Source: a virus
Taxonomy: Duplodnaviria; Heunggongvirae; Uroviricota; Caudoviricetes
Direction: 5' to 3' (one strand)
Length of the DNA: 64,000 nt
Virus record (IMG/VR): IMGVR_UViG_3300032330_001609
Span: 133,975-197,974 of that record
In this document: positions 4,291-44,976 of the stretch, one piece after another
Layout of the letters: each line of letters starts with the position of its first letter
Numbering within the stretch: the first letter of the stretch is position 1
Made by a program: the position numbers and the translations under genes
The notes under the pieces: generated by a model
Told to the model about the DNA's origin: nothing
Databases searched by the model: none
The model's input: only the letters and a program-made list of their open reading frames with translations

Positions 4291-4614
4291 ATGGAAATTA
4301 CGCAAGAATTATTACAAGAAAAAATTAAAAATGGTGAAAAATTAATCGTGGACTTCCACGCAAAATGGTGCGGACCCTGCAAAGTAATGAAACCTGTTTT
4401 TGAAAAATTAGCTGAAGAATATAGAAATGAAAATTCCGAGGTTCAATTATATACGATGGATGTTGAATTAAATAAAGAATTTGCTGCGGAATTGGGTGTT
4501 AGAGCAATTCCTACTGTAAAATCATTTTCTGATGGTAAAGAAGTATATTCTCAACCGGGAATGCAAATGGAAGGACAAATTAAACAATTGGTGACTAATC
4601 TAATCAATGGATAA
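4291..4614 (+). CDS. trx: thioredoxin
   Basis: WCGPC active site in a 107 aa thioredoxin fold. Confidence 0.9.
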   Translation: MEITQELLQEKIKNGEKLIVDFHAKWCGPCKVMKPVFEKLAEEYRNENSEVQLYTMDVELNKEFAAELGVRAIPTVKSFSDGKEVYSQPGMQMEGQIKQLVTNLING

Positions 4615-4894
4615 GTTATTATTTATCTTCACGATGGAAGGATGTCCGTATTGTGTTCAGATGAAAGATAAGTTGAAAGAATCTAAAATTGATTTTATTG
4701 AGAGAGATATCTTTGAACATAAAGATGAATATGAAATGTTTGTTGAGGTTACTCAAAACGATTTTGTACCGGCATTTATGATTATTGAAAACCCGGATAA
4801 AGATAATGAGAAAAGTCATTTATTTGCTCCGGACAGAGATTATGAAGACATTGATGGTGGTGTCTCAATTATCAGAGAACATTTTGGAAAATAA
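4607..4894 (+). CDS. glutaredoxin / NrdH-like redoxin
   Basis: CPYC motif in a 95 aa protein. It overlaps the trx stop by 8 nt. Confidence 0.75.
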   Translation: MDKLLFIFTMEGCPYCVQMKDKLKESKIDFIERDIFEHKDEYEMFVEVTQNDFVPAFMIIENPDKDNEKSHLFAPDRDYEDIDGGVSIIREHFGK

Positions 4895-4926: not shown

Positions 4927-5748
4927 GAATAATATTAGGTCATTTAATCTATCCTTAACCAACCAAGGTTTTTTATCAAATGGTTTTGTTAGGTCCTCCA
5001 TAATATCATAACCTTTAATCTTATCGTTAAACACCAACATATCAAAATCAAACACATCCAAGACCATAGAGATAATGTCTTTCTTTGGATAGATTGTGTT
5101 AGCGTTAATATCAATTTGATTATCCTCATCCACTTTAACGGACGAATATTTGAAAGTTAACTTATCTGTTAGAATGATGTCTAATAATTGATTAGAGATG
5201 TATTCTGAGTAATATAACTCTTGTCTTCCCATACTCAAACTATATCCGTAAGGAAACTCAGATGATACGTTTAACGGGGCGTATGTGAAGTAATCTAAAT
5301 TAGATGTATCATTTTCTGAGTAATCCAATTCATACTCCAACTTAGTGGTGTACTGAATAGAATTGAATAAAAGTTGGGGATTTTCAACAAGTTCAAATTC
5401 TAAAATTAAATTACGATGATATAATGGTCTTGAAGAATTATAGAAATCAAATGTATAATCTGTTTTTTTAGCCAATTCCTGACCGTATACTATTAGGTCA
5501 ATAATGTTTAGATTCGTATATCCAAACTTTTCCAATAAAGATTTATATTCTTTTGAAAACTCTTCTTTCATAGTAACCATATCCAATATTTTATCGGTAT
5601 TGGTTAAACCATTTACAACAAAGAATTTACCACAGTCAGTTACTTCAATTACCACATCGTAGTTATGTGTTTTGTTTATTTCTTTAACTAAAAAGTCTGC
5701 GAATAGGCTAACTAACCCTTTGTTTGAATTTTTGTTTACATATTTCAT
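4924..5748 (-). CDS. hypothetical protein (274 aa)
   Basis: Long minus-strand ORF with a terminator downstream at 4894-4926. Confidence 0.7.
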   Translation of the reverse strand: MKYVNKNSNKGLVSLFADFLVKEINKTHNYDVVIEVTDCGKFFVVNGLTNTDKILDMVTMKEEFSKEYKSLLEKFGYTNLNIIDLIVYGQELAKKTDYTFDFYNSSRPLYHRNLILEFELVENPQLLFNSIQYTTKLEYELDYSENDTSNLDYFTYAPLNVSSEFPYGYSLSMGRQELYYSEYISNQLLDIILTDKLTFKYSSVKVDEDNQIDINANTIYPKKDIISMVLDVFDFDMLVFNDKIKGYDIMEDLTKPFDKKPWLVKDRLNDLILF

Positions 5749-5802
5749 ATTAATAAATTATACCAATGAATAGGGAAAATAATTTAATTTATAAATAGAA
5801 AA

Positions 5803-5835
5803 TAAAAAAAGGGACTTAAAGTCCCTTTGATTTTT
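5803..5835. terminator. rho-independent terminator hairpin
   Basis: aaagggac-ttaaa-gtcccttt flanked by A- and T-runs. Confidence 0.55.
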
Positions 5836-5849
5836 CACATAATGAAATA

Positions 5850-6008
5850 TTATTTTTTGTTGTAATATTTCTCTACAACTTTACGGATAGACTCTTGAAT
5901 TGGCTGAGTTTTAGGCTGTGGAGCCTGAGACGGAGCCTGAGGTTGAGATTGTCCCGATTGTTGTACCGGTTGTGATTGATTCGCTTTGTTTTTACATCCG
6001 CAGCCCAT
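5850..6008 (-). CDS. small Q/P-rich protein (52 aa, MGCGCKNK...)
   Basis: I translated this by hand; it is below the ORF-track cutoff. A terminator lies immediately downstream on the minus strand. Confidence 0.3.
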   Translation of the reverse strand: MGCGCKNKANQSQPVQQSGQSQPQAPSQAPQPKTQPIQESIRKVVEKYYNKK

Positions 6009-6083
6009 AATTTTAATAATTAAACGTTTATAACAATAAATATGTGAGTTTTGTTTTAATTGTAAATAATTTATTTTAATTTT

Positions 6084-6096
6084 GTATATTTATTGG
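6084..6096 (+). promoter_or_regulatory. GATATTTAT-class motif
   Basis: gtatatttattgg immediately before the ATG at 6098. Confidence 0.4.
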
Positions 6097-6097
6097 T

Positions 6098-7462
6098 ATG
6101 AACAAACGAATACAACTTAACGAGAAACAATTGAAACAATATATCAAACGACTTACTGAGGAAGTTGAAGGTGAGTATTATAAAATAAGTCCGGAGGGAT
6201 ATATTGAGTTAATGAGATATGGTAGTTATCACGGTAAAGCGATAACTAAAATGAAGAAGTTTCAAGGTAAACCATTATGGATAACCGGGGACTTAAATCT
6301 TGATAGTACACCAACAGATAGTTTGGGTAATGTTGCTTATGTTGATGGGAACTTAAATATTTCAAGAACTAAAGTTTCTAGTATAGAAGGTACAAAAGTT
6401 AAGGGATATGTTTCTGATTATAATTCTCCTCGTGAGAGAATTAGAGAGAAACAAGAACTTAATGCTAAATTGGCGGGGCAAGAAGCACTCCGTGATAGTG
6501 AAGAATGGGCTTTAGAACAAGGTGATGAGACCGGAGAAAAGGCTCACGCGTTATTTGATAATTTAGTTAATGTTGGTGAGATTGAACCATTATCGGATGA
6601 TGATAAAGAAAAACTAATAATTCTACGTCGTAAACTTCAAGATTTAGAAAGAGAATATGAAGAACTTGATGATAATGATGATAGAGCTTATGAATTACAA
6701 GAAACTATAGATGAAACTCAATCGGAGATTGATGATTTAGAAGAGAACGATGTTGATGTTTATATGATGTACCCATCTCCAAGATATAGTCATTATGGGT
6801 TACAACAATTTGAGGTTTTAATACCAGGATTCAAAGATAGAGAATATACAGTTGGAACTGAAGAAGAAATGGATGCGGCGGCATTAGCTTATGCTAAAAA
6901 TTACATTGACGATGTTGGTGCTGATGGATTTAACGAATCATTTATTGAAGATTATTTGGATGTTGATGCGATTGTGAATATGGCTGAGGAAGATTATGAT
7001 TATCAAATTAGAGATTATCCGGAAAGTTACTTCAATGATGATGATTATGAATTGACAGATGAACAAGAAGAAAGAATAGAACAACTTGAATCACAAATTG
7101 CTGATTTGGAACAAGAACAATCAGAATTAGATACTGACCGAGAAGATTATGATGAGTTATATGAGGATTTCCAAAATCATATAGATGCTCTACAAGAAGA
7201 ATTGGATGGTATTGAAGTTGATACTGAACCAACTGAGGATATGATTGAGACTAAAGTTGCGGAACTTGTTAGAGATGTACGAAGAGACCCATTAGATTAT
7301 CTTAAAAACTATGGGTTAAGTATAAAAGAATATATTGATGAAGACGCTTTAGCTCAAGGGTTAGTTGATTCCGATGGTTGGGGTGTTATGAATGGTTATG
7401 ATGGTCAATACGATAGTGAAGAAGTTAATGGTATAACATATTATATTATGAGAGTTAACTAA
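6098..7462 (+). CDS. acidic coiled-coil protein
   Basis: 454 aa, very D/E-rich with heptad-like segments. A GTATATTTATTGG motif lies upstream. Confidence 0.7.
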   Translation: MNKRIQLNEKQLKQYIKRLTEEVEGEYYKISPEGYIELMRYGSYHGKAITKMKKFQGKPLWITGDLNLDSTPTDSLGNVAYVDGNLNISRTKVSSIEGTKVKGYVSDYNSPRERIREKQELNAKLAGQEALRDSEEWALEQGDETGEKAHALFDNLVNVGEIEPLSDDDKEKLIILRRKLQDLEREYEELDDNDDRAYELQETIDETQSEIDDLEENDVDVYMMYPSPRYSHYGLQQFEVLIPGFKDREYTVGTEEEMDAAALAYAKNYIDDVGADGFNESFIEDYLDVDAIVNMAEEDYDYQIRDYPESYFNDDDYELTDEQEERIEQLESQIADLEQEQSELDTDREDYDELYEDFQNHIDALQEELDGIEVDTEPTEDMIETKVAELVRDVRRDPLDYLKNYGLSIKEYIDEDALAQGLVDSDGWGVMNGYDGQYDSEEVNGITYYIMRVN

Positions 7463-7510: not shown

Positions 7511-8278
7511 ATGGAAAAGAAACGAAGAAATAAAAAGGTTAAATTCATAATGGATACCGATTGGTTATTTGAGGGAATCCTTGATGCCGAACAAAAACAG
7601 TATGTATTATTGGATTATTTCCAAAAGATGAATAAACATCTTGAAAGGATGGAAGTATATCCAATGTTTATTGAACTTTCATTACATTTAGGTAATGTAC
7701 AAACATTATTAAATCAAGACAAAATTTTATATACAGAAAGACAACTCACGTCCAATGATGATGAGTTGATTTTTTCTGACTTAAAAGTAAAAGACATCCC
7801 GGTCTTAGATGATGATGAGGTAATTGAATATCGTAAGATATTACGTTACATCCAACCACAACTTCACGACTATTTTAATTATGCTAAATCTATTTGGAGT
7901 ATTGTTTATGATTCAATTGATGTTATCATCAAAAAAAATAAAACAAATCTGAATAGTAAATCCGGATTTTTTTACTACAAAACTGAAACTTCCTTGTACA
8001 TTTGGAAGTATACTACCAAAAAAATTTATAAATCAAACAATCAGACTAAAACAACATTGTCTGCCATTTATTATGGTGAACATTTAGATTTGACTATATC
8101 AGAAATATTATCTAAATTTTCTAAAACATACGAAAAAAATAAAGAATTTGATTATCCAATATTTGAAGTACTATGTAATGACATATTCCCACTAGAGGAA
8201 ACTTTGGTACCAATATTTAAGAGAAAAATTTTATCATATATTAATCAACAAGTTAAAGTAAAAAAATTATTATCATAA
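7511..8278 (+). CDS. hypothetical protein
   Basis: 255 aa ORF. Confidence 0.6.
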   Translation: MEKKRRNKKVKFIMDTDWLFEGILDAEQKQYVLLDYFQKMNKHLERMEVYPMFIELSLHLGNVQTLLNQDKILYTERQLTSNDDELIFSDLKVKDIPVLDDDEVIEYRKILRYIQPQLHDYFNYAKSIWSIVYDSIDVIIKKNKTNLNSKSGFFYYKTETSLYIWKYTTKKIYKSNNQTKTTLSAIYYGEHLDLTISEILSKFSKTYEKNKEFDYPIFEVLCNDIFPLEETLVPIFKRKILSYINQQVKVKKLLS

Positions 8279-8460
8279 TGGACAAAAGACAGATTAAAGC
8301 GTTAATGGACAAGTTAAGACAACCAATCCACATTAGTTACATCTCAAGGTACATCCTTAAACTTGACGAGGATGAAACAAAAAAACAATTAGATACCTTA
8401 ATATCTGAAGGTTATATTAAAGAAAGTAATTTAAGTGAAGGATTTTATGTTGCTGTCTAA
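8278..8460 (+). CDS. hypothetical small protein
   Basis: 60 aa ORF coupled by ATGA stop/start overlap. Confidence 0.4.
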   Translation: MDKRQIKALMDKLRQPIHISYISRYILKLDEDETKKQLDTLISEGYIKESNLSEGFYVAV

Positions 8461-8664
8461 AAAAACATATCAGATTGGTTCGGGTTGTAGTCAGACAGTA
8501 CTTAAATCTTTTAATCAATCCATATTGTACAGTAAATCACCATCCGGTTGGTCAATTAGATTTAATAATGGGATTGGTGTTAATGTTACGACAAAACCAT
8601 TATTCTCAGTTAGAAATGGGTATAAAAAAAGTATTAAATTAGGGAAATATTATATAGTAAAATT

Positions 8665-9849
8665 ATGAAAGTAAAATTAGAGTACATTTGGTTGGACGGA
8701 TATAAACCGGAACCAAATTTGAGAAGTAAAATTAAAGTTGTTGACACATTACCAAAAGAGATTAGTGATATCCCTGAGTGGGGTTTTGATGGGAGTTCAA
8801 CTATGCAAGCCGAAGGATTCTCTTCAGATTGTTACCTTAAACCTGTTAGAATGTATCAAAAAGGTAATACCAATTTGGTTTATGTTTTATGTGAGGTATT
8901 GGATAAGTACAATAAACCACACGATACAAACGATAGAAGTGAATTAGGTAAAGAAGACAATGATTTTTGGATTGGGTTTGAACAAGAATACTTTATTCGT
9001 TCATCACACAACAAAGATGTTTTAGGGTTTGAAAGAGGTGGTACAGTTGACCCCCAAGGTAAATACTATTGTGGTGTTGGCGGACAAATTGTTGGTAGAG
9101 AGTTAAGTGACGAGCATTTGGATTATTGTCTTGACTTGGGTATAAATGTTGAGGGGACCAATGCTGAGGTGGCACTTGGACAATGGGAATACCAAATATT
9201 CACTAAAGGTAAATTAAAATCTGCCGATGATTTATGGATGTCAAGATACATCTTACATAAATTAGCGGAGAAAAGAGGTTACGCGATTGAACTTCATCCA
9301 AAACCAATTCAAATTGGTGAGTGGAATGGGTCAGGACTACATACAAACTTCTCAAGTAAAAAAATGAGAGAAGAAGGTGGAGAAACTTACTTCAAATCTA
9401 TCTTCAATGCTTTTGAAACTAGACAAAAACTTCACATTGAAAATTATGGTTCAGATAATCATTTAAGATTAACCGGTAAATTTGAGACACAATCAATTGA
9501 TAAATTTAGTTGGGGTGTATCAGATAGAGGAGCATCTATTAGAGTCCCTAAATCAGTTGGTGAAACTTGGAAAGGTTATCTTGAGGATAGAAGACCATCA
9601 TCAAATGCTAACCCTTATAAAGTTATTGGTGTTATCTATGACGCATTGATTTTCGCTGACCAATTGGAAACAACTATTCACGCAATGTATGGTGATGTGG
9701 ATACATCAAAATTAAGAGAACAATTCTCAGGAATTATGTCTGATGAAGAGTTACTAGGTGAATACAGAAATGATGATGATTATGAATTGACTCCTGAAAT
9801 GATGGAATCAAAAGCAAATGTACCAACAGAAGATATAACATCAAAATAA
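8665..9849 (+). CDS. glnA: glutamine synthetase, type II (eukaryote-like)
   Basis: IWLDG...EWGFDGSST.QAEG, YYCGVG, GTNAEV..QWEYQI, EWNGSGLHTNFS, RLTG, ASIRVP and DRRPSSN all match GSII signature blocks. Confidence 0.85.
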   Translation: MKVKLEYIWLDGYKPEPNLRSKIKVVDTLPKEISDIPEWGFDGSSTMQAEGFSSDCYLKPVRMYQKGNTNLVYVLCEVLDKYNKPHDTNDRSELGKEDNDFWIGFEQEYFIRSSHNKDVLGFERGGTVDPQGKYYCGVGGQIVGRELSDEHLDYCLDLGINVEGTNAEVALGQWEYQIFTKGKLKSADDLWMSRYILHKLAEKRGYAIELHPKPIQIGEWNGSGLHTNFSSKKMREEGGETYFKSIFNAFETRQKLHIENYGSDNHLRLTGKFETQSIDKFSWGVSDRGASIRVPKSVGETWKGYLEDRRPSSNANPYKVIGVIYDALIFADQLETTIHAMYGDVDTSKLREQFSGIMSDEELLGEYRNDDDYELTPEMMESKANVPTEDITSK

Positions 9850-9850
9850 T

Positions 9851-10087
9851 ATGAGTGAGAATAAAGAAATGGTGAACCACCCGGAACATTACGGTGGTCA
9901 GGACAATCCATATGAGGTTGTAAAAGTGTGTGAGGCTTGGGGTCTTGATAAGGATGCTTACATCTTCAACGTAGTTAAATATGTTGCAAGAGCGGGTAAG
10001 AAAGATACTGATAAAGAACTTCAAGATATGAAAAAAGCATTGTGGTATTTGAATCGTAAAATTGAACGATTAGAAAATGGAAATTAA
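9851..10087 (+). CDS. DUF3310-like phage protein
   Basis: HPEHYGG ... NVVKYVARAGKK...ELQDMKKALWYLNRKIERL resembles the DUF3310 pattern. Confidence 0.45.
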   Translation: MSENKEMVNHPEHYGGQDNPYEVVKVCEAWGLDKDAYIFNVVKYVARAGKKDTDKELQDMKKALWYLNRKIERLENGN

Positions 10088-10534: not shown

Positions 10535-11392
10535 ATGATAGAAACAGGAAAGATTATAAATGGTGATTGTGTTGAGGTAATGAAATCACTTCCGGATGGA
10601 TGTATTGATTTACTAGTAACGTCACCACCCTATAACGTAAATGTATCATACGATGTATATGATGATGGACGTTCAATGGACGAGTATTGGGAGTTCACCC
10701 GACAATGGTTATCTGAATCATTAAGAATATTGAAAGACGATGGTAGAGTAGCAATCAATGTTCCAATTGAATTAAACGTTCAAGAAAGAGGTGGAAGAAT
10801 CTTATTCAATGCTGAATTTTGGATAATGATGAAACAAGTTGGATTCAAATTCTTTGGAATGGTTGACTTGACTGAGGATTCTCCACACCGAGTTAGACAA
10901 ACGGCTTGGGGTAGTTGGATGAGTGCTAGTTGTCCTTACATATATAACCCGAAGGAATGTATCATATTGGCTTACAAAAAAACAAATAAGAAACTAACCA
11001 AGGGTGAATCACAATGGAAAGGTGTTCCAACGGATGTTGAACAACCGGATGGAACAACAAAAAATAAAGTGGTTTATCAGGATGAAGATAAGAAAGAGTT
11101 TATGAACTTGGTATTTGGACGATGGGAATACTTTGCTGATACCAAATCATTAACTAAGGCGACATTCTCAATGGATATTCCAATGAAAGCGATTAAGATA
11201 TTATCATATAAGAATGATATTGTTTTTGACCCTTTTATGGGTAGTGGAACATCAGCAGTTGCTGCTGAGATATTAGGCAGGAGATGGTTGGGAGTCGAGT
11301 TATCTCCAAATTATACGGATATCGCAAGAAAACGAGTGAATGCGTTTATTGAAGAAAGGAAACAATTAGAGTTAGAATTAAAAGAGGAGTAA
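10535..11392 (+). CDS. DNA methyltransferase (beta-class N4-cytosine/N6-adenine)
   Basis: DLLVTSPPYN (motif IV) precedes FDPFMGSGTS (motif I), which is the beta-class order. Confidence 0.85.
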   Translation: MIETGKIINGDCVEVMKSLPDGCIDLLVTSPPYNVNVSYDVYDDGRSMDEYWEFTRQWLSESLRILKDDGRVAINVPIELNVQERGGRILFNAEFWIMMKQVGFKFFGMVDLTEDSPHRVRQTAWGSWMSASCPYIYNPKECIILAYKKTNKKLTKGESQWKGVPTDVEQPDGTTKNKVVYQDEDKKEFMNLVFGRWEYFADTKSLTKATFSMDIPMKAIKILSYKNDIVFDPFMGSGTSAVAAEILGRRWLGVELSPNYTDIARKRVNAFIEERKQLELELKEE

Positions 11393-11408
11393 CATCCTCT
11401 TTTTTTAT
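11380..11408 (+). terminator. rho-independent terminator
   Basis: agagga-gtaaca-tcctct followed by T7. Confidence 0.6.
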
Positions 11409-12900: not shown

Positions 12901-14307
12901 ATGAAACAACTAATAAATGAAAGTGGTTTAAGAGATATTAAAGCCCTTGCAAAAAGATATCCTAAAGCTGAAATATATTTCCATCAAGATTTAGATGGTG
13001 TGACAACGGCAATTGCTATGAAAAAATACCTTGAGAACAATGGTATTAAAGTAGTTGACGCTCATATTATTCAATATGGAGATAAAGAGTTTGCGGTGAA
13101 GAAGAATGATGCTAAAGGTGATGTTATGCCGGTCTTAGTGGATTTTGCTCACGGTAAACCAATGTTTGTTATTCATACAGACCATCACGATAGACAAGCC
13201 GGTGCTGAAGATACTAAATCAACATCATTCAGACAGTCTCGTTCTAATGTTGAAACAATTTCTCAGGTAGTTTCACCTAAAGATTTATTTCCATCTTCGG
13301 ATATATTATTAATTTCAACGGTAGATTCAGCAAATTACGCATTTAATGAAATAAGTGTTGACCAAGTGATATCTTATTTATTCAAATTAGATAAAGACTC
13401 TTCATTACAAAAAAATAAAATGTTAATGGGATTAGTTGTTAACAAATTATTATTAGCCTTCAAAAACAAACCGGGATTCTTAGAACAATTGGTGATGGAA
13501 TGTAGTCCATCCTTATTGAATATACTTCATACAATTAAAAAAATTATGGTTCAAAAAGGTTTTGTAAAACCTGAAAGTCTTGAACAAAATAAAGATGAGT
13601 ATGTTAAATCAATGCAAGATAATCCTAATGTTAAAGTATTGGGTAACATCATAGTTCAATATGGTGGAGGTCCAATGTTTAAGCCAGGTTCTTATGACCG
13701 ATATACACCATTCAAAAATAATCCTGAAGCGGACTTCTTAGTTATTGCTTGGCCTTTGGGGTTAGTTCAAGCATCTTGTAATCCATTCAAAAAAGAAAGA
13801 GAACTAAAAGGTGTTAATTTAGGTGAGATAGCTCAAGAAGTTTTATCTAAGTGGGAAGACCAATTAAAACAACGTGAGTTACCACTTTCAACTATTAAAT
13901 GGGTATCGGAAACATCAAAAGATTTTAATACGGAATCAACAGGATTTACATTCAAAGATTTTGTTGCGTTATATGGTAAAGATTATAAATCAAAAGACCA
14001 CGGTAAGGAAGAATTATTACATATTGGTGAGATGATGGAGAAACCATTTTCAGAATTACCGGAAGAACATAGACAAATGTTGGATGATATTAATGTAAAT
14101 GTTTGGGATTTTATTCAGGCAAATAGTGGTGGGCACAAATGTATAACAAACATTTCAGGATTAAATTATCTTGGTAGAGGTAAAAGACCACCAAAAGGAA
14201 GTCATAGATATAATGAGGCGGATGATTCACCAACGGTTAAATTTACCAAAATGATTCAGAACGAGTTTGTGAAATTATTACAAGAAAAAATTAGTCAAGG
14301 TCACTAA
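12901..14307 (+). CDS. DHH-family phosphoesterase
   Basis: HQDLDGV (motif I), VDFAHGK (II), HTDHHD (III) and SGGHK (IV). Confidence 0.6.
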   Translation: MKQLINESGLRDIKALAKRYPKAEIYFHQDLDGVTTAIAMKKYLENNGIKVVDAHIIQYGDKEFAVKKNDAKGDVMPVLVDFAHGKPMFVIHTDHHDRQAGAEDTKSTSFRQSRSNVETISQVVSPKDLFPSSDILLISTVDSANYAFNEISVDQVISYLFKLDKDSSLQKNKMLMGLVVNKLLLAFKNKPGFLEQLVMECSPSLLNILHTIKKIMVQKGFVKPESLEQNKDEYVKSMQDNPNVKVLGNIIVQYGGGPMFKPGSYDRYTPFKNNPEADFLVIAWPLGLVQASCNPFKKERELKGVNLGEIAQEVLSKWEDQLKQRELPLSTIKWVSETSKDFNTESTGFTFKDFVALYGKDYKSKDHGKEELLHIGEMMEKPFSELPEEHRQMLDDINVNVWDFIQANSGGHKCITNISGLNYLGRGKRPPKGSHRYNEADDSPTVKFTKMIQNEFVKLLQEKISQGH

Positions 14308-15165: not shown

Positions 15166-15203
15166 AAACCTCAACAGAGTAAATTTTGTTGAGGTTTTTT
15201 TTG
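15166..15203 (+). terminator. rho-independent terminator
   Basis: cctcaaca...tgttgagg followed by T8. Confidence 0.65.
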
Positions 15204-15222
15204 TTTATATCAAAAATAGTAT

Positions 15223-15230
15223 TATCTTTG
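15223..15230 (+). promoter_or_regulatory. Bacteroidota-type -7 box
   Basis: tagtattatctttgtcggg, 22 nt before the ATG at 15253. Confidence 0.55.
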
Positions 15231-16528: not shown

Positions 16529-17269
16529 ATGGAAAAATTATTTACCTTTTATGAGGTTGGGGGGAAAGTTAGAGATGAGATTTTAGGTCTTGAATCTAAA
16601 GACGTGGATTACGTTGCGGTTCCTAACGATAAATTGTTACAGGACTTTGATACTGCTGAGTCTATGTTCTCTATGTTGGAACAATACCTGAAGGATGAGA
16701 AGTTTGAAATCTTCTTGGTTACACCGGATTGTTTTACCATCAGAGCAAAGTTCCCAAAAAACCATAAGTATAGTGGTGTTGCGGACTTTGTAATGGCTCG
16801 TAAGGAAGTTGGTTATGTTCCGGGAACAAGAACACCAATCGTTAAACCGGGGACGTTATATGATGATTTGGAGAGACGTGATGCTACATTGAACGCGTTG
16901 GCAAAAGATGACAATGGAACTATAATTGATTACTTCAACGGATTAACTCACTTGAAGTATGGTATTTTGAGAACACCATTAGACCCAATTAAAACTTTTG
17001 ATGATGACCCTCTTAGAATTATCAGATTCATTAGGTTCTCAATTACAAAAGGTTTTACAATCCCGGATGATATTCAATCAGTAATTGCTTCATACGACTA
17101 CGAATCTAAAATGGGTGTAGTTTCAACTGAAAGAATTAGAGAAGAATTGTTAAAGTGTTTTAAGTATAATACATTAAGAGCTTTGGGTACAATTAATTAT
17201 TACCCTAATTTAAGAGATTACATTTTCAAAAACAATCTGTTGTGGTTAAAACCAACGATGGAACAATAA
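16529..17269 (+). CDS. CCA-adding tRNA nucleotidyltransferase / poly(A) polymerase head domain (class II)
   Basis: VGGKVRDEILGLESKDVDYV gives the GG.VRD and DxD motifs, and ERRDATLNALA gives the RRD motif. Confidence 0.7.
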   Translation: MEKLFTFYEVGGKVRDEILGLESKDVDYVAVPNDKLLQDFDTAESMFSMLEQYLKDEKFEIFLVTPDCFTIRAKFPKNHKYSGVADFVMARKEVGYVPGTRTPIVKPGTLYDDLERRDATLNALAKDDNGTIIDYFNGLTHLKYGILRTPLDPIKTFDDDPLRIIRFIRFSITKGFTIPDDIQSVIASYDYESKMGVVSTERIREELLKCFKYNTLRALGTINYYPNLRDYIFKNNLLWLKPTMEQ

Positions 17270-17922: not shown

Positions 17923-17951
17923 AAAAAGTTTGTATATTAAAAAAATAGTAT

Positions 17952-17959
17952 TATCTTTG
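17952..17959 (+). promoter_or_regulatory. Bacteroidota-type -7 box
   Basis: TTTG-19 nt-TAtcTTTG before 17975. Confidence 0.6.
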
Positions 17960-20641: not shown

Positions 20642-20672
20642 ATAAAAAGTTTGGTAAGTTAAAAAATAGTGT

Positions 20673-20680
20673 TATCTTTG
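20673..20680 (+). promoter_or_regulatory. Bacteroidota-type -7 box
   Basis: aaaaatagtgttatctttgtactc before 20702. Confidence 0.55.
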
Positions 20681-31540: not shown

Positions 31541-31563
31541 TTTGGAGATATAAAATAAAGTAT

Positions 31564-31571
31564 TATCTTTG
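31564..31571 (+). promoter_or_regulatory. Bacteroidota-type -7 box
   Basis: aaagtattatctttgtatcc before 31611. Confidence 0.55.
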
Positions 31572-31610: not shown

Positions 31611-32450
31611 ATGAAGAAAATTTTAGTAATTGCTGGTGTAGTATTGTTATTTTTAACAATGTTCAATTCGTGTGACGTTATTAACGCAGGACACGTGGGG
31701 GTGAAAGTTGATATGTATGGTTCCGGTAAAGGAGTTCAGAACGTAACGGCTTGTACAGGATGGGTATTTTATAACCCAATCACAACAAAGGTTTATGAGT
31801 TCCCAACTTATATCCAACACAAAGAGTATAAGAAAACTGAAGATGGGGACAACTCCTTCACGGTTAACACAAAAGATGGTTCTGAGTTCAGAGTATCTCC
31901 AATCTTAAACTACTCTGTTAATCCGGATAAAGCACCTCAGATTTTTGCGAAGTATAGACGAACATTACCTGAGTTGGAGGAAGGATTCTTAAAGACTGCT
32001 ATTTATGACGCATTCCGATTGGCGACCAATAACTATACTGCTGAGGAATTGATATCTAATAGAGCAGCATTTGAGGTTAAGGTTAGAGGTTTGTTAGAAT
32101 CTCAGATAACTAAAGAAGGGTTTATTGTGAACCAATTTACATCTAACTTGGAATACCCAACATCATTCAAAAACGCAATCAACGCTAAGAACAACGCGGT
32201 ACAGGCGGCACTTACGGCTGAGAACCAAGTGAAGACTGCTGAGGCACAGGCTAAGATTAAAGTGGCGACAGCACAAGGTAACGCTGAGGCATTGTTAACC
32301 AACGCTAAGGCTGAGGCTGAATCAAACAGATTGAGACAACAAACTCTTACACCTATGTTGTTACAACAAAAATGGATTGAGAAATGGGATGGAGCACTTC
32401 CAACCACTCAATTGGCATCCGGGGCAAACACTATGTACGGATTAAAATAG
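31611..32450 (+). CDS. SPFH/band-7 (prohibitin/HflC-like) membrane protein
   Basis: N-terminal TM segment, an SPFH core and an A/Q-rich coiled-coil C-terminus. The ORF-track start lay inside the promoter, so the first ATG at 31611 was used. Confidence 0.75.
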   Translation: MKKILVIAGVVLLFLTMFNSCDVINAGHVGVKVDMYGSGKGVQNVTACTGWVFYNPITTKVYEFPTYIQHKEYKKTEDGDNSFTVNTKDGSEFRVSPILNYSVNPDKAPQIFAKYRRTLPELEEGFLKTAIYDAFRLATNNYTAEELISNRAAFEVKVRGLLESQITKEGFIVNQFTSNLEYPTSFKNAINAKNNAVQAALTAENQVKTAEAQAKIKVATAQGNAEALLTNAKAEAESNRLRQQTLTPMLLQQKWIEKWDGALPTTQLASGANTMYGLK

Positions 32451-34175: not shown

Positions 34176-34191
34176 TGAGGGTTTTTTTATA
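34163..34191. terminator. bidirectional terminator
   Basis: aaaaccctc-tgatg-agggtttttt. Confidence 0.65.
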
Positions 34192-34771
34192 TTTTATACT
34201 TTGTAAAGTCGGTTGATAATGGTTTTTCATTTTTGAAGTAGTATACTTCTGTAACACCATCATACTTTATTGTTTTTCTGTAAGCAGTTGGGACAGTTGC
34301 TCCGGATGGTAACTTAATTGATTTTGGACCAAAGATACATCTGATTTCAACCTGAACTACTTTATGTGTTTTTGCTAGTTCTCTTTCTCTTACCTCAAGT
34401 AATCTCCACGTTGTTCTATTGAGGTTCTCTTGTTGTAGGGAACAGTTCAGATAAGTGAATGTTTTGAATAGAGTTTCTTTATCACAATTAAAATCAGCTG
34501 CAGGTGCTAAATGACCTTTGTCGTAAGGATTTTTTTCATAATCTTTAGCATCAGATGTTTTAATTGTTTTGTCAACATAAAAATCCATTCCGGTTCTTGA
34601 TGCGGTTCCATTTGGACATTGAACGGTATAACGAATGAATTTAGGTTGTTCCAACTTCTCTGAGTATACAATCTCAAACATTGGAGTTTTAACCACAATA
34701 CTATCTCTCAACACTTGTGAGAATGATGTGAATGTGGTTAAAGTAATTAGTAATAATAAAATGTTTTTCAT
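34187..34771 (-). CDS. secreted DNA/RNA non-specific endonuclease (Serratia NUC family)
   Basis: Signal peptide plus the DKGHLAP active-site motif (DRGH family). Confidence 0.75.
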   Translation of the reverse strand: MKNILLLLITLTTFTSFSQVLRDSIVVKTPMFEIVYSEKLEQPKFIRYTVQCPNGTASRTGMDFYVDKTIKTSDAKDYEKNPYDKGHLAPAADFNCDKETLFKTFTYLNCSLQQENLNRTTWRLLEVRERELAKTHKVVQVEIRCIFGPKSIKLPSGATVPTAYRKTIKYDGVTEVYYFKNEKPLSTDFTKYKI

Positions 34772-34815
34772 AAATAATGTTTTACAATAAATATCCGTAT
34801 CAAAAATTTACTTCC

Positions 34816-34829
34816 GGTATATTTATAGG
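34816..34829 (+). promoter_or_regulatory. GATATTTAT-class motif
   Basis: ggtatatttatagg directly before the ATG at 34831. Confidence 0.4.
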
Positions 34830-34830
34830 T

Positions 34831-35541
34831 ATGAGTTTAAGTAAAGATTTAACAATAGTAATACCCTGTAAAAACGAGGGTTTAATCATAAAGAGAACTT
34901 TAGGATTATTAAACTTGCAAAACAATATCAAAGGTGTAAATGTAATGGTTGCCGATTCTTCAACAGATGATGGATTTACACAAAAATGTATTCTTAATCC
35001 AAGCTATAACAATATTAAAGTAAAAATGGTTAAAGGTGGATTTCCTGCTGAAGCCAGAAACAATGGAACCAAAAAAATAAAAACACCTTATGTTTTATTC
35101 TTGGATGCTGACATATACCTGAATGATTATAATTTATTAAATGAAATGGTTGAGGTAATGAAAAAAAATGATTATCATTTATCCACGGTTAAAATGAGAA
35201 CTGATGATGGTGACTACAATTATGTATATAAATCATTTGATGTTATCCAATATCTAACCAAGTTCTCCACACCATTTGCGGTCGGAGGATTTATGTTATT
35301 TAATTTAGAGGTATTCAATTCATTGGGAGGATTTAATCCGGATGATAAGTTTGCCGAGGATTATCATTTAAGTTCAAAGATAAACCCAAATAAGTTTTAT
35401 GTGGCAGACAAAATTGTTTATACCACATCAAGACGATTCAAGAACAAAGGTTTATTCTATATGGTTAAGATGATGATTAAATCTTGGTTTAATAGAAACA
35501 ACGATGAGTTCTTCACAAAGGAACATAATTACTGGACATAA
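34831..35541 (+). CDS. glycosyltransferase family 2
   Basis: IVIPCKNEG...DSSTDDG...LDAD; start trimmed to the ATG preceded by GGTATATTTATAGG. Confidence 0.7.
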   Translation: MSLSKDLTIVIPCKNEGLIIKRTLGLLNLQNNIKGVNVMVADSSTDDGFTQKCILNPSYNNIKVKMVKGGFPAEARNNGTKKIKTPYVLFLDADIYLNDYNLLNEMVEVMKKNDYHLSTVKMRTDDGDYNYVYKSFDVIQYLTKFSTPFAVGGFMLFNLEVFNSLGGFNPDDKFAEDYHLSSKINPNKFYVADKIVYTTSRRFKNKGLFYMVKMMIKSWFNRNNDEFFTKEHNYWT

Positions 35542-36260
35542 TGAAATACAAAACAATAATTCTATCAGACATTCACTTGGGTTCCAAATCAAGTAGAGCA
35601 AACGATGTTATAGAATTTCTTGAAAAGAACACCACAGAGACCTTAATATTAAATGGGGATATCGTTGATGGTTGGGCTCTAAAAAGAGGTGGGAAATGGA
35701 AAGAAAGTCACACCAAAGTATTGAGAAAGATAATGAAGATGAGCGAGAAGGGTGTGAACGTTATTTGGCTCAGAGGAAATCACGATGAGTTCCTAAAAGA
35801 TTTTATCCCATTCCAATTATCTAATCTAACAATCACAGAGGATTATACCTTCACATCCCTTGATGGTCGTAAGATGTATGTGTTTCACGGAGATGTGTTG
35901 GATGTGTTCATTACCAAAGCAAAATGGTTGGCTCACATTGGTTCAATAGGTTATGACTTAGCATTATGGATGAATAGAGTTTACAACAAATATCGTGAGA
36001 TGAGAGGGTTACCTTATTATTCCATCTCCAAAGATATTAAAAATGGTGTTAAGAAAGCCGTTAACTTTATAAATGATTTTGAACACAACGCAATATTATT
36101 AACTTACAAAAAAGGTTGTGATGTTGCCGTTTGTGGTCACATTCATCAACCGGAGTTAAAAGACAACTATATGAATAGTGGGGATTGGTGTGAAAACTGT
36201 ACCGCTCTTGTTGAAACAAAAAAAGGTGAATGGAAAGTAATTGAATTCCACAAAAAATAA
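35541..36260 (+). CDS. calcineurin-like metallophosphoesterase
   Basis: SDIHLG, NGDIVDGW, RGNHDE and GHIHQP motifs. Confidence 0.8.
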   Translation: MKYKTIILSDIHLGSKSSRANDVIEFLEKNTTETLILNGDIVDGWALKRGGKWKESHTKVLRKIMKMSEKGVNVIWLRGNHDEFLKDFIPFQLSNLTITEDYTFTSLDGRKMYVFHGDVLDVFITKAKWLAHIGSIGYDLALWMNRVYNKYREMRGLPYYSISKDIKNGVKKAVNFINDFEHNAILLTYKKGCDVAVCGHIHQPELKDNYMNSGDWCENCTALVETKKGEWKVIEFHKK

Positions 36261-38444: not shown

Positions 38445-38475
38445 TAAGGAACTATTTGGTAGTTCCTTTTTTTAT
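38445..38475 (+). terminator. rho-independent terminator
   Basis: aaggaact-atttggt-agttcctt followed by T7. Confidence 0.65.
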
Positions 38476-38490
38476 GCTTACTTTTGTCAA

Positions 38491-44940: not shown

Positions 44941-44968
44941 ATAAATTTGGTGGATTAAAAAATAATAT

Positions 44969-44976
44969 TATCTTTG
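44969..44976 (+). promoter_or_regulatory. Bacteroidota-type -7 box
   Basis: aataatattatctttgtaccc before 45005. Confidence 0.55.

Follow-up and report, generated by a model that had tools for sequence, protein, structure and literature searches.

We describe a glutamine synthetase (GS) gene in a 64,000-nucleotide stretch of a Caudoviricetes virus (positions 133,975 to 197,974 of IMG/VR record IMGVR_UViG_3300032330_001609; hereafter the window), which has a GC content of ~32% and dense, short genes lying nearly all on the + strand. The gene occupies 8665..9849 (+), starts with ATG and encodes 394 aa plus a stop codon; it was recognized from the open reading frame (ORF) call, from Pfam, NCBIfam and Protein Data Bank (PDB) matches and from an AlphaFold2 (AF2) model. 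A first-pass annotation had proposed a type II glutamine synthetase (GSII) here on the basis of seven motif blocks, and position, strand, length and motifs were all borne out exactly: a motif scan found EWGFDGSSTxQAEG at residues 38-51, YYCGVG at 134-139, GTNAEVxxGQWEYQI at 164-178, EWNGSGLHTNFS at 219-230, RLTG at 268-271, ASIRVP at 290-295 and DRRPSSNANPY at 308-318. Two PROSITE-type GS signatures match residues 41-58 and 213-230.

Profile searches placed the protein in GSII rather than in GSI or GSIII, in agreement with the first-pass annotation. Pfam models for both GS domains were matched: Gln-synt_N (PF03951) over residues 5-80 (E=1.8e-8; 34.3 bits vs a gathering cutoff of 33.4) and Gln-synt_C (PF00120; E=1.4e-21; 77.4 bits vs a gathering cutoff of 24). 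The NCBIfam GlnII model (NF041605) aligned over positions 1-328/333 with 330 bits (E=1.5e-98), and the sequences of 16 solved GSII structures in the PDB scored 262-290 bits, with GSI structures at 47 bits or less. Together with sequence matches to yeast Gln1 (E=2e-85) and Streptomyces coelicolor GSII (E=3e-83), these scores demonstrate a similarity to GSII far beyond chance. Members of GSI (judged by a length of ~450-470 aa, the cutoff of model TIGR00653 and an adenylylation loop) differ from the phage protein, which scored 61 bits against the TIGR00653 cutoff of 429 and has a GS core of only 328 aa. With 44 bits, the match to the GSIII model TIGR03105 fell short of its cutoff of 469.6; GSIII enzymes typical of Bacteroides are ~700 aa long, far above the 394 aa of the phage GS. 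The 330 bits obtained with the GlnII model lie below its curated equivalog cutoff of 500, so the phage GS represents a divergent subfamily, which is placed in GSII by its fold, architecture and residues and not by the equivalog threshold. The alignment to GSII covers residues 1-328 alone, and residues 330-394 form an additional C-terminal tail.

The structural model agrees with this assignment. Built from an alignment with 120 diverse GSII sequences, it reached a mean predicted local distance difference test (pLDDT) score of 91.5 (~97 over the core), and its best PDB match in Foldseek was S. coelicolor GSII (4bax; template modeling (TM) score 0.91, root-mean-square deviation 1.7 Å). The top 50 Foldseek matches in the PDB were all GSII, with the eukaryotic GSII decamers ranking after the S. 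coelicolor enzyme. The N-terminal beta-grasp domain (residues 5-80; 8677..8904, +; PF03951 and residue mapping) includes D42 and S45, and the catalytic domain (residues ~95-328; 8947..9648, +) is delimited by PF00120, by the GlnII model, which runs to residue 328, and by the mapping.

Active-site residues were located by carrying dog and human GS numbering over by HMMER alignment, with the numbering checked on the reference sequence; their roles follow the structural literature on human and bacterial/enterobacterial GS. All 21 residues that could be anchored in this mapping from mammalian GS are retained, and all 21 are invariant in an alignment of 59 viral homologs with 68-96% identity to the query. 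They comprise the metal ligands E106, E108, E168, E175, H226 and E307 (human E134, E136, E196, E203, H253 and E338), the ammonium site and Glu flap D42, S45, Y135 and E274 (human D63, S66, Y162 and E305) and the glutamate/ATP residues W102, N221, G222, N228, S230, R235, R268, R288, R293, Y305 and R309. The Escherichia coli equivalents of the four ammonium-site and flap residues are Asp50', Ser53', Tyr179 and Glu327, and D42 and S45 contribute to the ammonium site from a neighboring subunit. The Mn/Mg-binding glutamates and the Asp50 region, which the first-pass annotation had singled out for inspection, are therefore conserved throughout these relatives. Judged from sequence and model, the phage GS looks catalytically intact, and we would expect it to be enzymatically active and to assemble into a decamer of two pentameric rings.

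The same residues bear on whether the protein might instead be a repurposed GS-fold amidoligase that joins something other than ammonium to glutamate or amidates another carboxylate, for example in nucleotide, cell-wall or DNA modification, as the first-pass annotation had offered as an alternative (a repurposed ATP-dependent ligase). The GS fold has often been recruited in this way, as in gamma-glutamyl-polyamine synthetases, theanine synthetase and the phage "amidoligases" (Iyer et al. 2009, cited in PMC7824862). Glycosyltransferases and a nucleotidyltransferase are also encoded in the window, and the score below the GlnII equivalog cutoff would fit such a history. However, there is no variation at D42, S45, Y135 or E274 of the ammonium pocket, nor at any of the glutamate, ATP or metal ligands; the gamma-glutamylputrescine synthetase model gives 31 bits vs 330 for GlnII, and across loci GS is not accompanied by partner genes for modification. 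Phage amidoligases in BFVD are only remote structural matches to the GS model (TM 0.15-0.3, 10-17% identity) and belong to different Pfam families; these amidoligases and COOH-NH2 ligases share a distantly related catalytic fold with GS, whereas the phage GS is canonical and no amidoligase. We therefore consider a repurposed ligase very unlikely.

Purifying selection has acted on the gene throughout the viral family. The ORF is intact in 79/79 complete viral copies, pairwise Nei-Gojobori dN/dS over the core is 0.06-0.18 at dS values of up to more than 1, and the 59-member family alignment contains at least 130 invariant columns, the whole active site included. The GC content of the gene matches that of the phage. 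That the gene is a decaying passenger, or its product a pseudo-enzyme of no use to the phage, might be suspected from the absence of GS in 10/36 otherwise syntenic relatives (see below); this idea is effectively refuted by the conservation and by dN/dS values of 0.06-0.19 (tail included), and we regard it as vanishingly improbable. The loss of catalytic residues that the first-pass annotation had named as fatal to its reading was likewise not borne out, given the 21/21 residues retained.

The C-terminal tail sets the viral proteins apart from their cellular counterparts. The 79/79 complete viral copies are 370-441 aa long (median 390) and carry a C-terminal extension of 33-100 aa, whereas cellular GlnII proteins measure 333-343 aa (median 337; n=80; outliers of 352-754 aa were mostly extraction artefacts with internal stops) and all 80 lack the tail. 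Module 1 (residues 330-370; 9652..9774, +) occurs in every viral copy and in no cellular GlnII. Its consensus is L..L..T[LI]H.MY...[DN]T.K[LI]..[KQ][FY].G..S..ELL.EY[RK], in which L334, M341 and Y367 are invariant and nine more positions are at least 90% conserved; in the AF2 model it prolongs the final helix of the core, after which come two short helices. Module 2 (residues 371-394; 9775..9846, +; consensus D.YEL....MES[KR]ANVP.EEI) is acidic, predicted to be disordered and confined to a "long" class of viral copies, the "short" class ending directly after EYRE[ED]. The whole tail contains 17 acidic vs 5 basic residues. Predicted tail helices span residues 317-343 (the core helix running on), 348-353 and 360-372, the latter two with pLDDT ~60, and pLDDT falls below 50 for residues 382-394.

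Like the core, the tail is under purifying selection (pairwise Nei-Gojobori dN/dS 0.07-0.19, the same as the core). A hidden Markov model of the tail matched clade members only, when tested on ~150 GSII representatives, 80 cellular GlnII and the copies from huge phages, and a tblastn search of the tail sequence against the window and the collected loci gave matches solely at GS C-termini. To judge from a tail-less sister sequence (L081, discussed below), the tail may have arisen after the gene was captured by phages. We suggest that it modulates assembly, regulation or partner binding.

The setting of the gene is that of a phage genome. GS homologs were found on 179 IMG/VR contigs and on contigs 295-321 kb long, and the order g10 - g11 - (g12) - GS - DUF3310 - (g15) - methylase ... 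g19 is conserved across relatives and identical on the 321-kb contig (Ga0621872_00141). Phage genes flank GS on both sides, and the synteny holds on 70-79 IMG/VR loci as well as on the 321-kb contig, so the gene is phage-encoded, as first supposed. Upstream, g10 (7511..8278, +; 255 aa), which had no match in Pfam and PHROG searches, has a homolog in 40/50 viral loci with sufficient flank, and g11 (8278..8460, +; 60 aa, with a KLRQPIHIxYISxYIL motif) is found in 45/66 loci and immediately precedes GS in loci that lack g12; it might be a small DNA-binding protein, though this is guesswork. An ORF related to g12 (8447..8668, +; 73 aa, ...PLFSVRNGYKKSIKLGKYY) lies upstream in 28/53 loci, and its stop codon and the start codon that follows share 4 nt (ATGA), whether the next gene is GS or DUF3310. 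We rejected g12 as a dedicated partner or regulator of GS, given this limited occurrence and its retention in loci without GS.

Downstream of GS, a small DUF3310 phage protein (9851..10087, +; PF11753, E=4e-14, and many PHROG matches) follows directly in 70/79 loci, and an N6/N4 DNA methyltransferase (10535..11392, +; PF01555, E=3e-34) is present in 65/70. The methyltransferase gene and a terminator-like hairpin after it (11380-11403) likely mark the end of the co-directional block that holds GS. No enrichment of sigma-70 promoters was seen around GS (57 vs 50.5±6.5 in shuffles), and none was assigned as the GS promoter. Cellular GlnII genes are accompanied by none of these neighbors. GS identity to the query correlates with that of the neighboring genes (Spearman 0.46-0.69), which fits vertical co-inheritance of GS and its neighbors.

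When the lineage was sampled through g19 rather than through GS itself (36 loci with sufficient flank), GS was present in 26/36 and absent from 10/36 syntenic loci; g19 identity divides the latter into three or more groups (87-88%, 77% and 76%). The left border of the gene, AAAATTATGA (8659..8668, +; identified by junction alignment), contains the ATGA overlap of the g12 stop and the GS start, and the right border, AAAATAATATGA (9843..9854, +), contains the GS stop (TAA, 9847-9849) and the DUF3310 start (ATG, 9851-9853); both are AAAAT(T/A)..ATGA start/stop-overlap junctions. At the empty sites of two loci (L178, ~6005-6016, and L183, ~7003-7014) the left and right flanks are joined exactly, and g12 and DUF3310 share an ATGA at their stop and start, just as g12 and GS do in the window. 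These junctions and the shared border motif show that GS is an accessory gene, gained or lost ORF-precisely at microhomology.

An alternative view is that the protein is mainly regulatory or moonlighting, the tail docking a host or phage partner, such as a nitrogen-status regulator, and rewiring host nitrogen signaling, with catalysis secondary. The tail, specific to the clade, shows conserved motifs of hydrophobic and acidic residues and evolves under purifying selection; its distal part is predicted to be disordered and resembles a short linear motif. GS also serves as a regulator-binding hub elsewhere, as in Bacillus (TnrA/GlnR), cyanobacteria (IF7/IF17) and archaea (GlnK/sP26). Yet conservation of the catalytic residues is just as strict as that of the tail, a clear sign of selection for catalysis. 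None of the candidate partners varies together with GS (g12, for one, persists without it), and the tail may merely stabilize the oligomer. We consider a mainly regulatory role unlikely. Somewhat less improbable, though still doubtful, is a scenario in which the tail is a viral innovation added after GlnII capture that makes the enzyme unregulatable by the host or turns it into a docking platform, with the GS+/GS- difference acting as an ecological switch. The tail could, for example, clamp the decamer in an active, feedback-insensitive state, or it could bind a host regulator of nitrogen status, so that glutamine is made and the nitrogen signal falsified; the ORF-precise GS+/GS- polymorphism would then be a switch tuned between nitrogen regimes.

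The first-pass annotation had further suggested that the gene derives from a Bacteroidota host glnA and had called for a phylogeny with Bacteroidota GSII. A scan of 185,579 species genomes recovered cellular GlnII that share 50-62% identity, taken over the best tblastn segment, in Planctomycetota (many Pirellula), Bacteroidota (Saprospiraceae, Cytophagales and Flavobacteriales), Verrucomicrobiota, Gammaproteobacteria and Marine Group II (MGII) archaea. In a neighbor-joining tree (296 sequences, 304 columns, 100 bootstraps), the query, 79 viral proteins, three 50%-cluster representatives and L081 formed a clade with bootstrap 97, and the sister group of this clade was without support (bootstrap ≤11). 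The viral clade shares 54-59% identity with the GlnII of at least five phyla, those of MGII archaea and the four bacterial phyla just named being equally distant, and the maximum phylum mean identities are nearly level (Rhodothermota 58.6%, Bacteroidota 58.5, Planctomycetota 58.2, Verrucomicrobiota 58.1 and Gammaproteobacteria 56.5). Within the clade, full-length identity drops to ~67-68% (74% over conserved core columns); such divergence, together with the conserved synteny, points to an old capture, which is the simplest reading of these sequences, with no one phylum singled out as the donor.

The sole clade member labeled as cellular, L081, comes from a Lake Baikal metagenome-assembled genome (MAG) binned as Flavobacteriaceae bacterium Baikal-deep-G76 (SHWW01000027.1; GS at 4986-6005, 339 aa). 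Its neighbors are mostly ORFans, its GC content is 32%, and it carries a CobS/MoxR-like protein, a polynucleotide-kinase-like gene and a 732-aa protein with 37% identity to Microcystis phage Mel-JY01 and 32% to the 484-kb huge phage LR756508. The contig looks like a mis-binned piece of a large phage. We rejected L081 as a cellular donor because the contig is phage-like, and the viral clade accordingly contains no cellular sequences.

A recent, unchanged copy of the glnA (GlnII) of a Bacteroidota host is consequently quite unlikely. The probable host is a member of the Bacteroidota, GlnII does occur in some of them (Saprospiraceae, Cytophagales, Arcicella, Gaoshiqia and Zunongwangia), and the DnaK of moraphages is reported to nest within Flavobacteriaceae (PMC12619734). 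Against such a copy stand a top cellular identity of only 52-60%, with Bacteroidota no closer than other phyla, the monophyly of the viral clade beside an unsupported sister group, the tail seen in no cellular GlnII, and the deep divergence with conserved synteny. The proposed Bacteroidota donor thus finds no support in the phylogeny.

Independent evidence does favor the Bacteroidota host that had been proposed at the outset. The Bacteroidota promoter motif TTTG-N17-21-TAnnTTTG occurs 17 times in the window vs 4.0±2.1 in shuffled sequence (~4-fold; 0/100 shuffles reach 17), which supports such a host, and the best cultured match of a structural-like window protein is a protein annotated as structural in Flavobacterium phage vB_FspM_immuto (39%). 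Six intergenic promoter-like sites on the + strand share the extended consensus TTTGnnnnnTTAAAAAATAGTATTATCTTTG (15200-15230, 17929-17959, 20650-20680, 31541-31571, 44946-44976 and 56738-56768), with looser copies at 2171-2202 and 38455-38486; they probably represent a phage promoter class read by a host sigma factor. A megablast search with 25 kb of the window found no match among GenBank phages, so a close sequenced relative is absent there. Overall, the window derives from a large (up to ~320 kb) aquatic phage, probably with a Bacteroidota host.

Scans of window proteins covered about 30 of ~110 called ORFs. Genes typical of phages included DUF3310, the N6/N4 DNA methylase, a peptidoglycan-binding-like protein, a metallophosphatase and a non-specific endonuclease, and a Laminin_G_3 protein matched "virion structural protein" PHROGs; most other scanned proteins were ORFans. 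We found no recognizable large terminase subunit (TerL), major capsid protein (MCP) or family B DNA polymerase (PolB) in the window, and a tRNA scan of it found no tRNA genes. This tRNA-free window encodes a PolyA_pol-head nucleotidyltransferase of the CCA-adding/poly(A) polymerase family (16529-17269, +; E=8e-16), and an SPFH/Band-7 protein lies at 31611-32450 (+; E=1e-24). A cluster at 34187-36260 comprises a non-specific DNA/RNA endonuclease (- strand), a family 2 glycosyltransferase (GT2) and a calcineurin-like metallophosphatase, with a second GT2 at 59336-60058; a connection with glycosylation of DNA or of the virion is possible.

The GS block is preceded by the gene for an extremely acidic, D/E-rich protein of 454 aa (6098-7462, +). 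This protein has relatives at 34-78% identity and a weak PHROG match to a head maturation protease, its single domains not passing; the match is probably compositional. A bidirectional terminator-like hairpin (5808-5828) lies just upstream of its gene. Downstream of the block, a 468-aa protein (12901-14307, +) weakly matches a DHH-phosphoesterase N-domain, short of the Pfam cutoff. This protein is highly conserved in the lineage, with 74-96% identity over at least 590 IMG/VR matches and 40-45% to the huge phages LR745206 and LR756502, and may be a lineage marker. On one related contig (L166; GS 92% identical), positions 5628-6231, corresponding to ~4291-4894 of the window and a few kilobases upstream of GS, encode thioredoxin, glutaredoxin and a GIY-YIG endonuclease (Pfam), and DUF192 and NUDIX genes lie downstream of GS. 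The thioredoxin/glutaredoxin pair suggests an accessory region for redox and nucleotide metabolism on that contig.

We consider it likely that the phage expresses an active GSII that sustains glutamine synthesis for nucleotide production and amidotransferase-dependent biosynthesis outside the control exerted on host GS. An auxiliary metabolic role, which the first-pass annotation had also favored, appears the best reading of the sequence, as GS is phage-encoded and catalytically intact in appearance. The phage GSII would catalyze the reaction glutamate + NH4+ + ATP -> glutamine + ADP + Pi, and its expression from the phage genome during infection would raise or maintain glutamine synthesis independently of host GS control. 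Glutamine is the chief nitrogen donor for nucleotide synthesis, and in this case it could feed purine, pyrimidine/CTP, amino-sugar, NAD and asparagine synthesis for the replication of a very large genome. The benefit would be expected in nitrogen-poor water and may well be conditional.

Several points weigh against this interpretation. Close relatives do without GS in 10/36 loci, so any benefit must be conditional; a conditional benefit would in turn explain the GS+/GS- polymorphism. The protein scores below the GlnII equivalog cutoff, and the tail could alter its regulation or even its role. No glutamine amidotransferase or other evident glutamine consumer was seen among the ~30/~110 window proteins scanned, and the assignment of the host is indirect.

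If phage-borne GS is active, it can uncouple the nitrogen assimilation of an infected cell from host control, with relevance to the replication of very large phages in nitrogen-poor lakes and seas and to virus-driven nitrogen flux. The natural GS+ and GS- genotypes offer a field test for the auxiliary metabolic gene (AMG) hypothesis, and the conserved tail, absent from the cellular GSII examined, provides a testable handle on how viruses customize a central metabolic enzyme.

That phages encode GS is already published and is not new here; our analysis adds a virus-only GSII clade, a conserved two-module tail that has apparently gone undescribed so far, and the ORF-precise accessory status of the gene. 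Moraphages are aquatic jumbo phages of up to 307 kb with predicted Bacteroidota/Flavobacteriia hosts (Perez-Hernandez et al. 2025, PMC12619734); in that paper, GS is noted as an AMG in 9/25 genomes, multiple glycosyltransferases are among the core genes, and a DnaJ-like gene is mentioned and tRNAs are not. A 2025 preprint on huge phages (the Huge Phage Genome Collection) reports 248 GS genes in 247 genomes, 215 of them freshwater or marine (bioRxiv 10.1101/2025.02.27.640493), glnA appears in a 2026 survey as one of the AMGs of jumbo phages (PMC13037316), and a 2007 Global Ocean Sampling (GOS) paper had shown that bacterial GSII is abundant in ocean metagenomes, which also hold a viral GSII group. 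The accessible portions of the moraphage, huge-phage and jumbo-phage papers do not state the type, active-site status, origin or C-terminal extension of the phage GS, and a literature search for GSII in phages returned nothing relevant. The published systems resemble the window in coming from large aquatic phages (~300-320 kb) with predicted Bacteroidota/Flavobacteriia hosts, in carrying GS in a subset of genomes and in the nitrogen-metabolism AMG interpretation. The likeness to moraphages extends circumstantially to the size of contigs that bear GS homologs (295-321 kb), a DnaJ-like gene, faintly matched, close to GS at locus L164, two GT2 genes, the lack of tRNAs, Bacteroidota promoter motifs and GS in 26/36 loci. 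The phage of the window is possibly a moraphage or a close relative.

With regard to cultured phages, the first-pass remark that GS is no standard phage gene is right, since PHROGs contain no GSII family and the only GenBank phages with GSII are four huge-phage MAGs (LR756501/LR756503, LR756502 and LR745206), none of them cultured; it does not hold for jumbo and huge phages, in which the gene is recurrent and has been reported. The GS of these huge phages (635-735 kb) is, like that of the window, GSII-type and carried by phages with predicted Bacteroidota-like affinities, and the 468-aa neighbor is also found in 635-642 kb huge phages at 40-45% identity. Unlike the GS of the window, it is of cellular length, has no tail, shares 43-55% identity and falls outside the tailed clade. 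The huge-phage copies (LR756501.1, 149789-150763; LR756502.1; LR745206.1) lie nearest Saprospiraceae GlnII, at 60-66% identity. Their lack of a tail and this affinity indicate that they were acquired independently of the tailed clade.

Among cellular enzymes, bacterial GlnII (NF041605; 4bax) is the closest counterpart: like the phage GS it has two domains and no eukaryotic N-terminal extension of ~24 aa, is collinear over residues 1-328, and has identical residues at all active-site positions, at 43-47% identity to 4bax and 54-59% to the GlnII of aquatic Planctomycetota, Bacteroidota and Verrucomicrobiota. It differs in that the phage GS has the extra tail (put at 40-65 aa in this comparison), belongs to a virus-only clade and sits among phage genes rather than PII/ntr-type neighbors. 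We know of no precedent for a functional GSII tail other than the extension of plant plastidic GS2. This short C-terminal extension is reported to be crucial for activity (Ferreira et al. 2017, cited in PMC8747334). Being short, variable and unrelated in sequence to the phage tail, it is an analogy rather than a homolog, and as a lineage-specific C-terminal extension of a GSII enzyme it may serve as a precedent for a functional tail in the phage protein.

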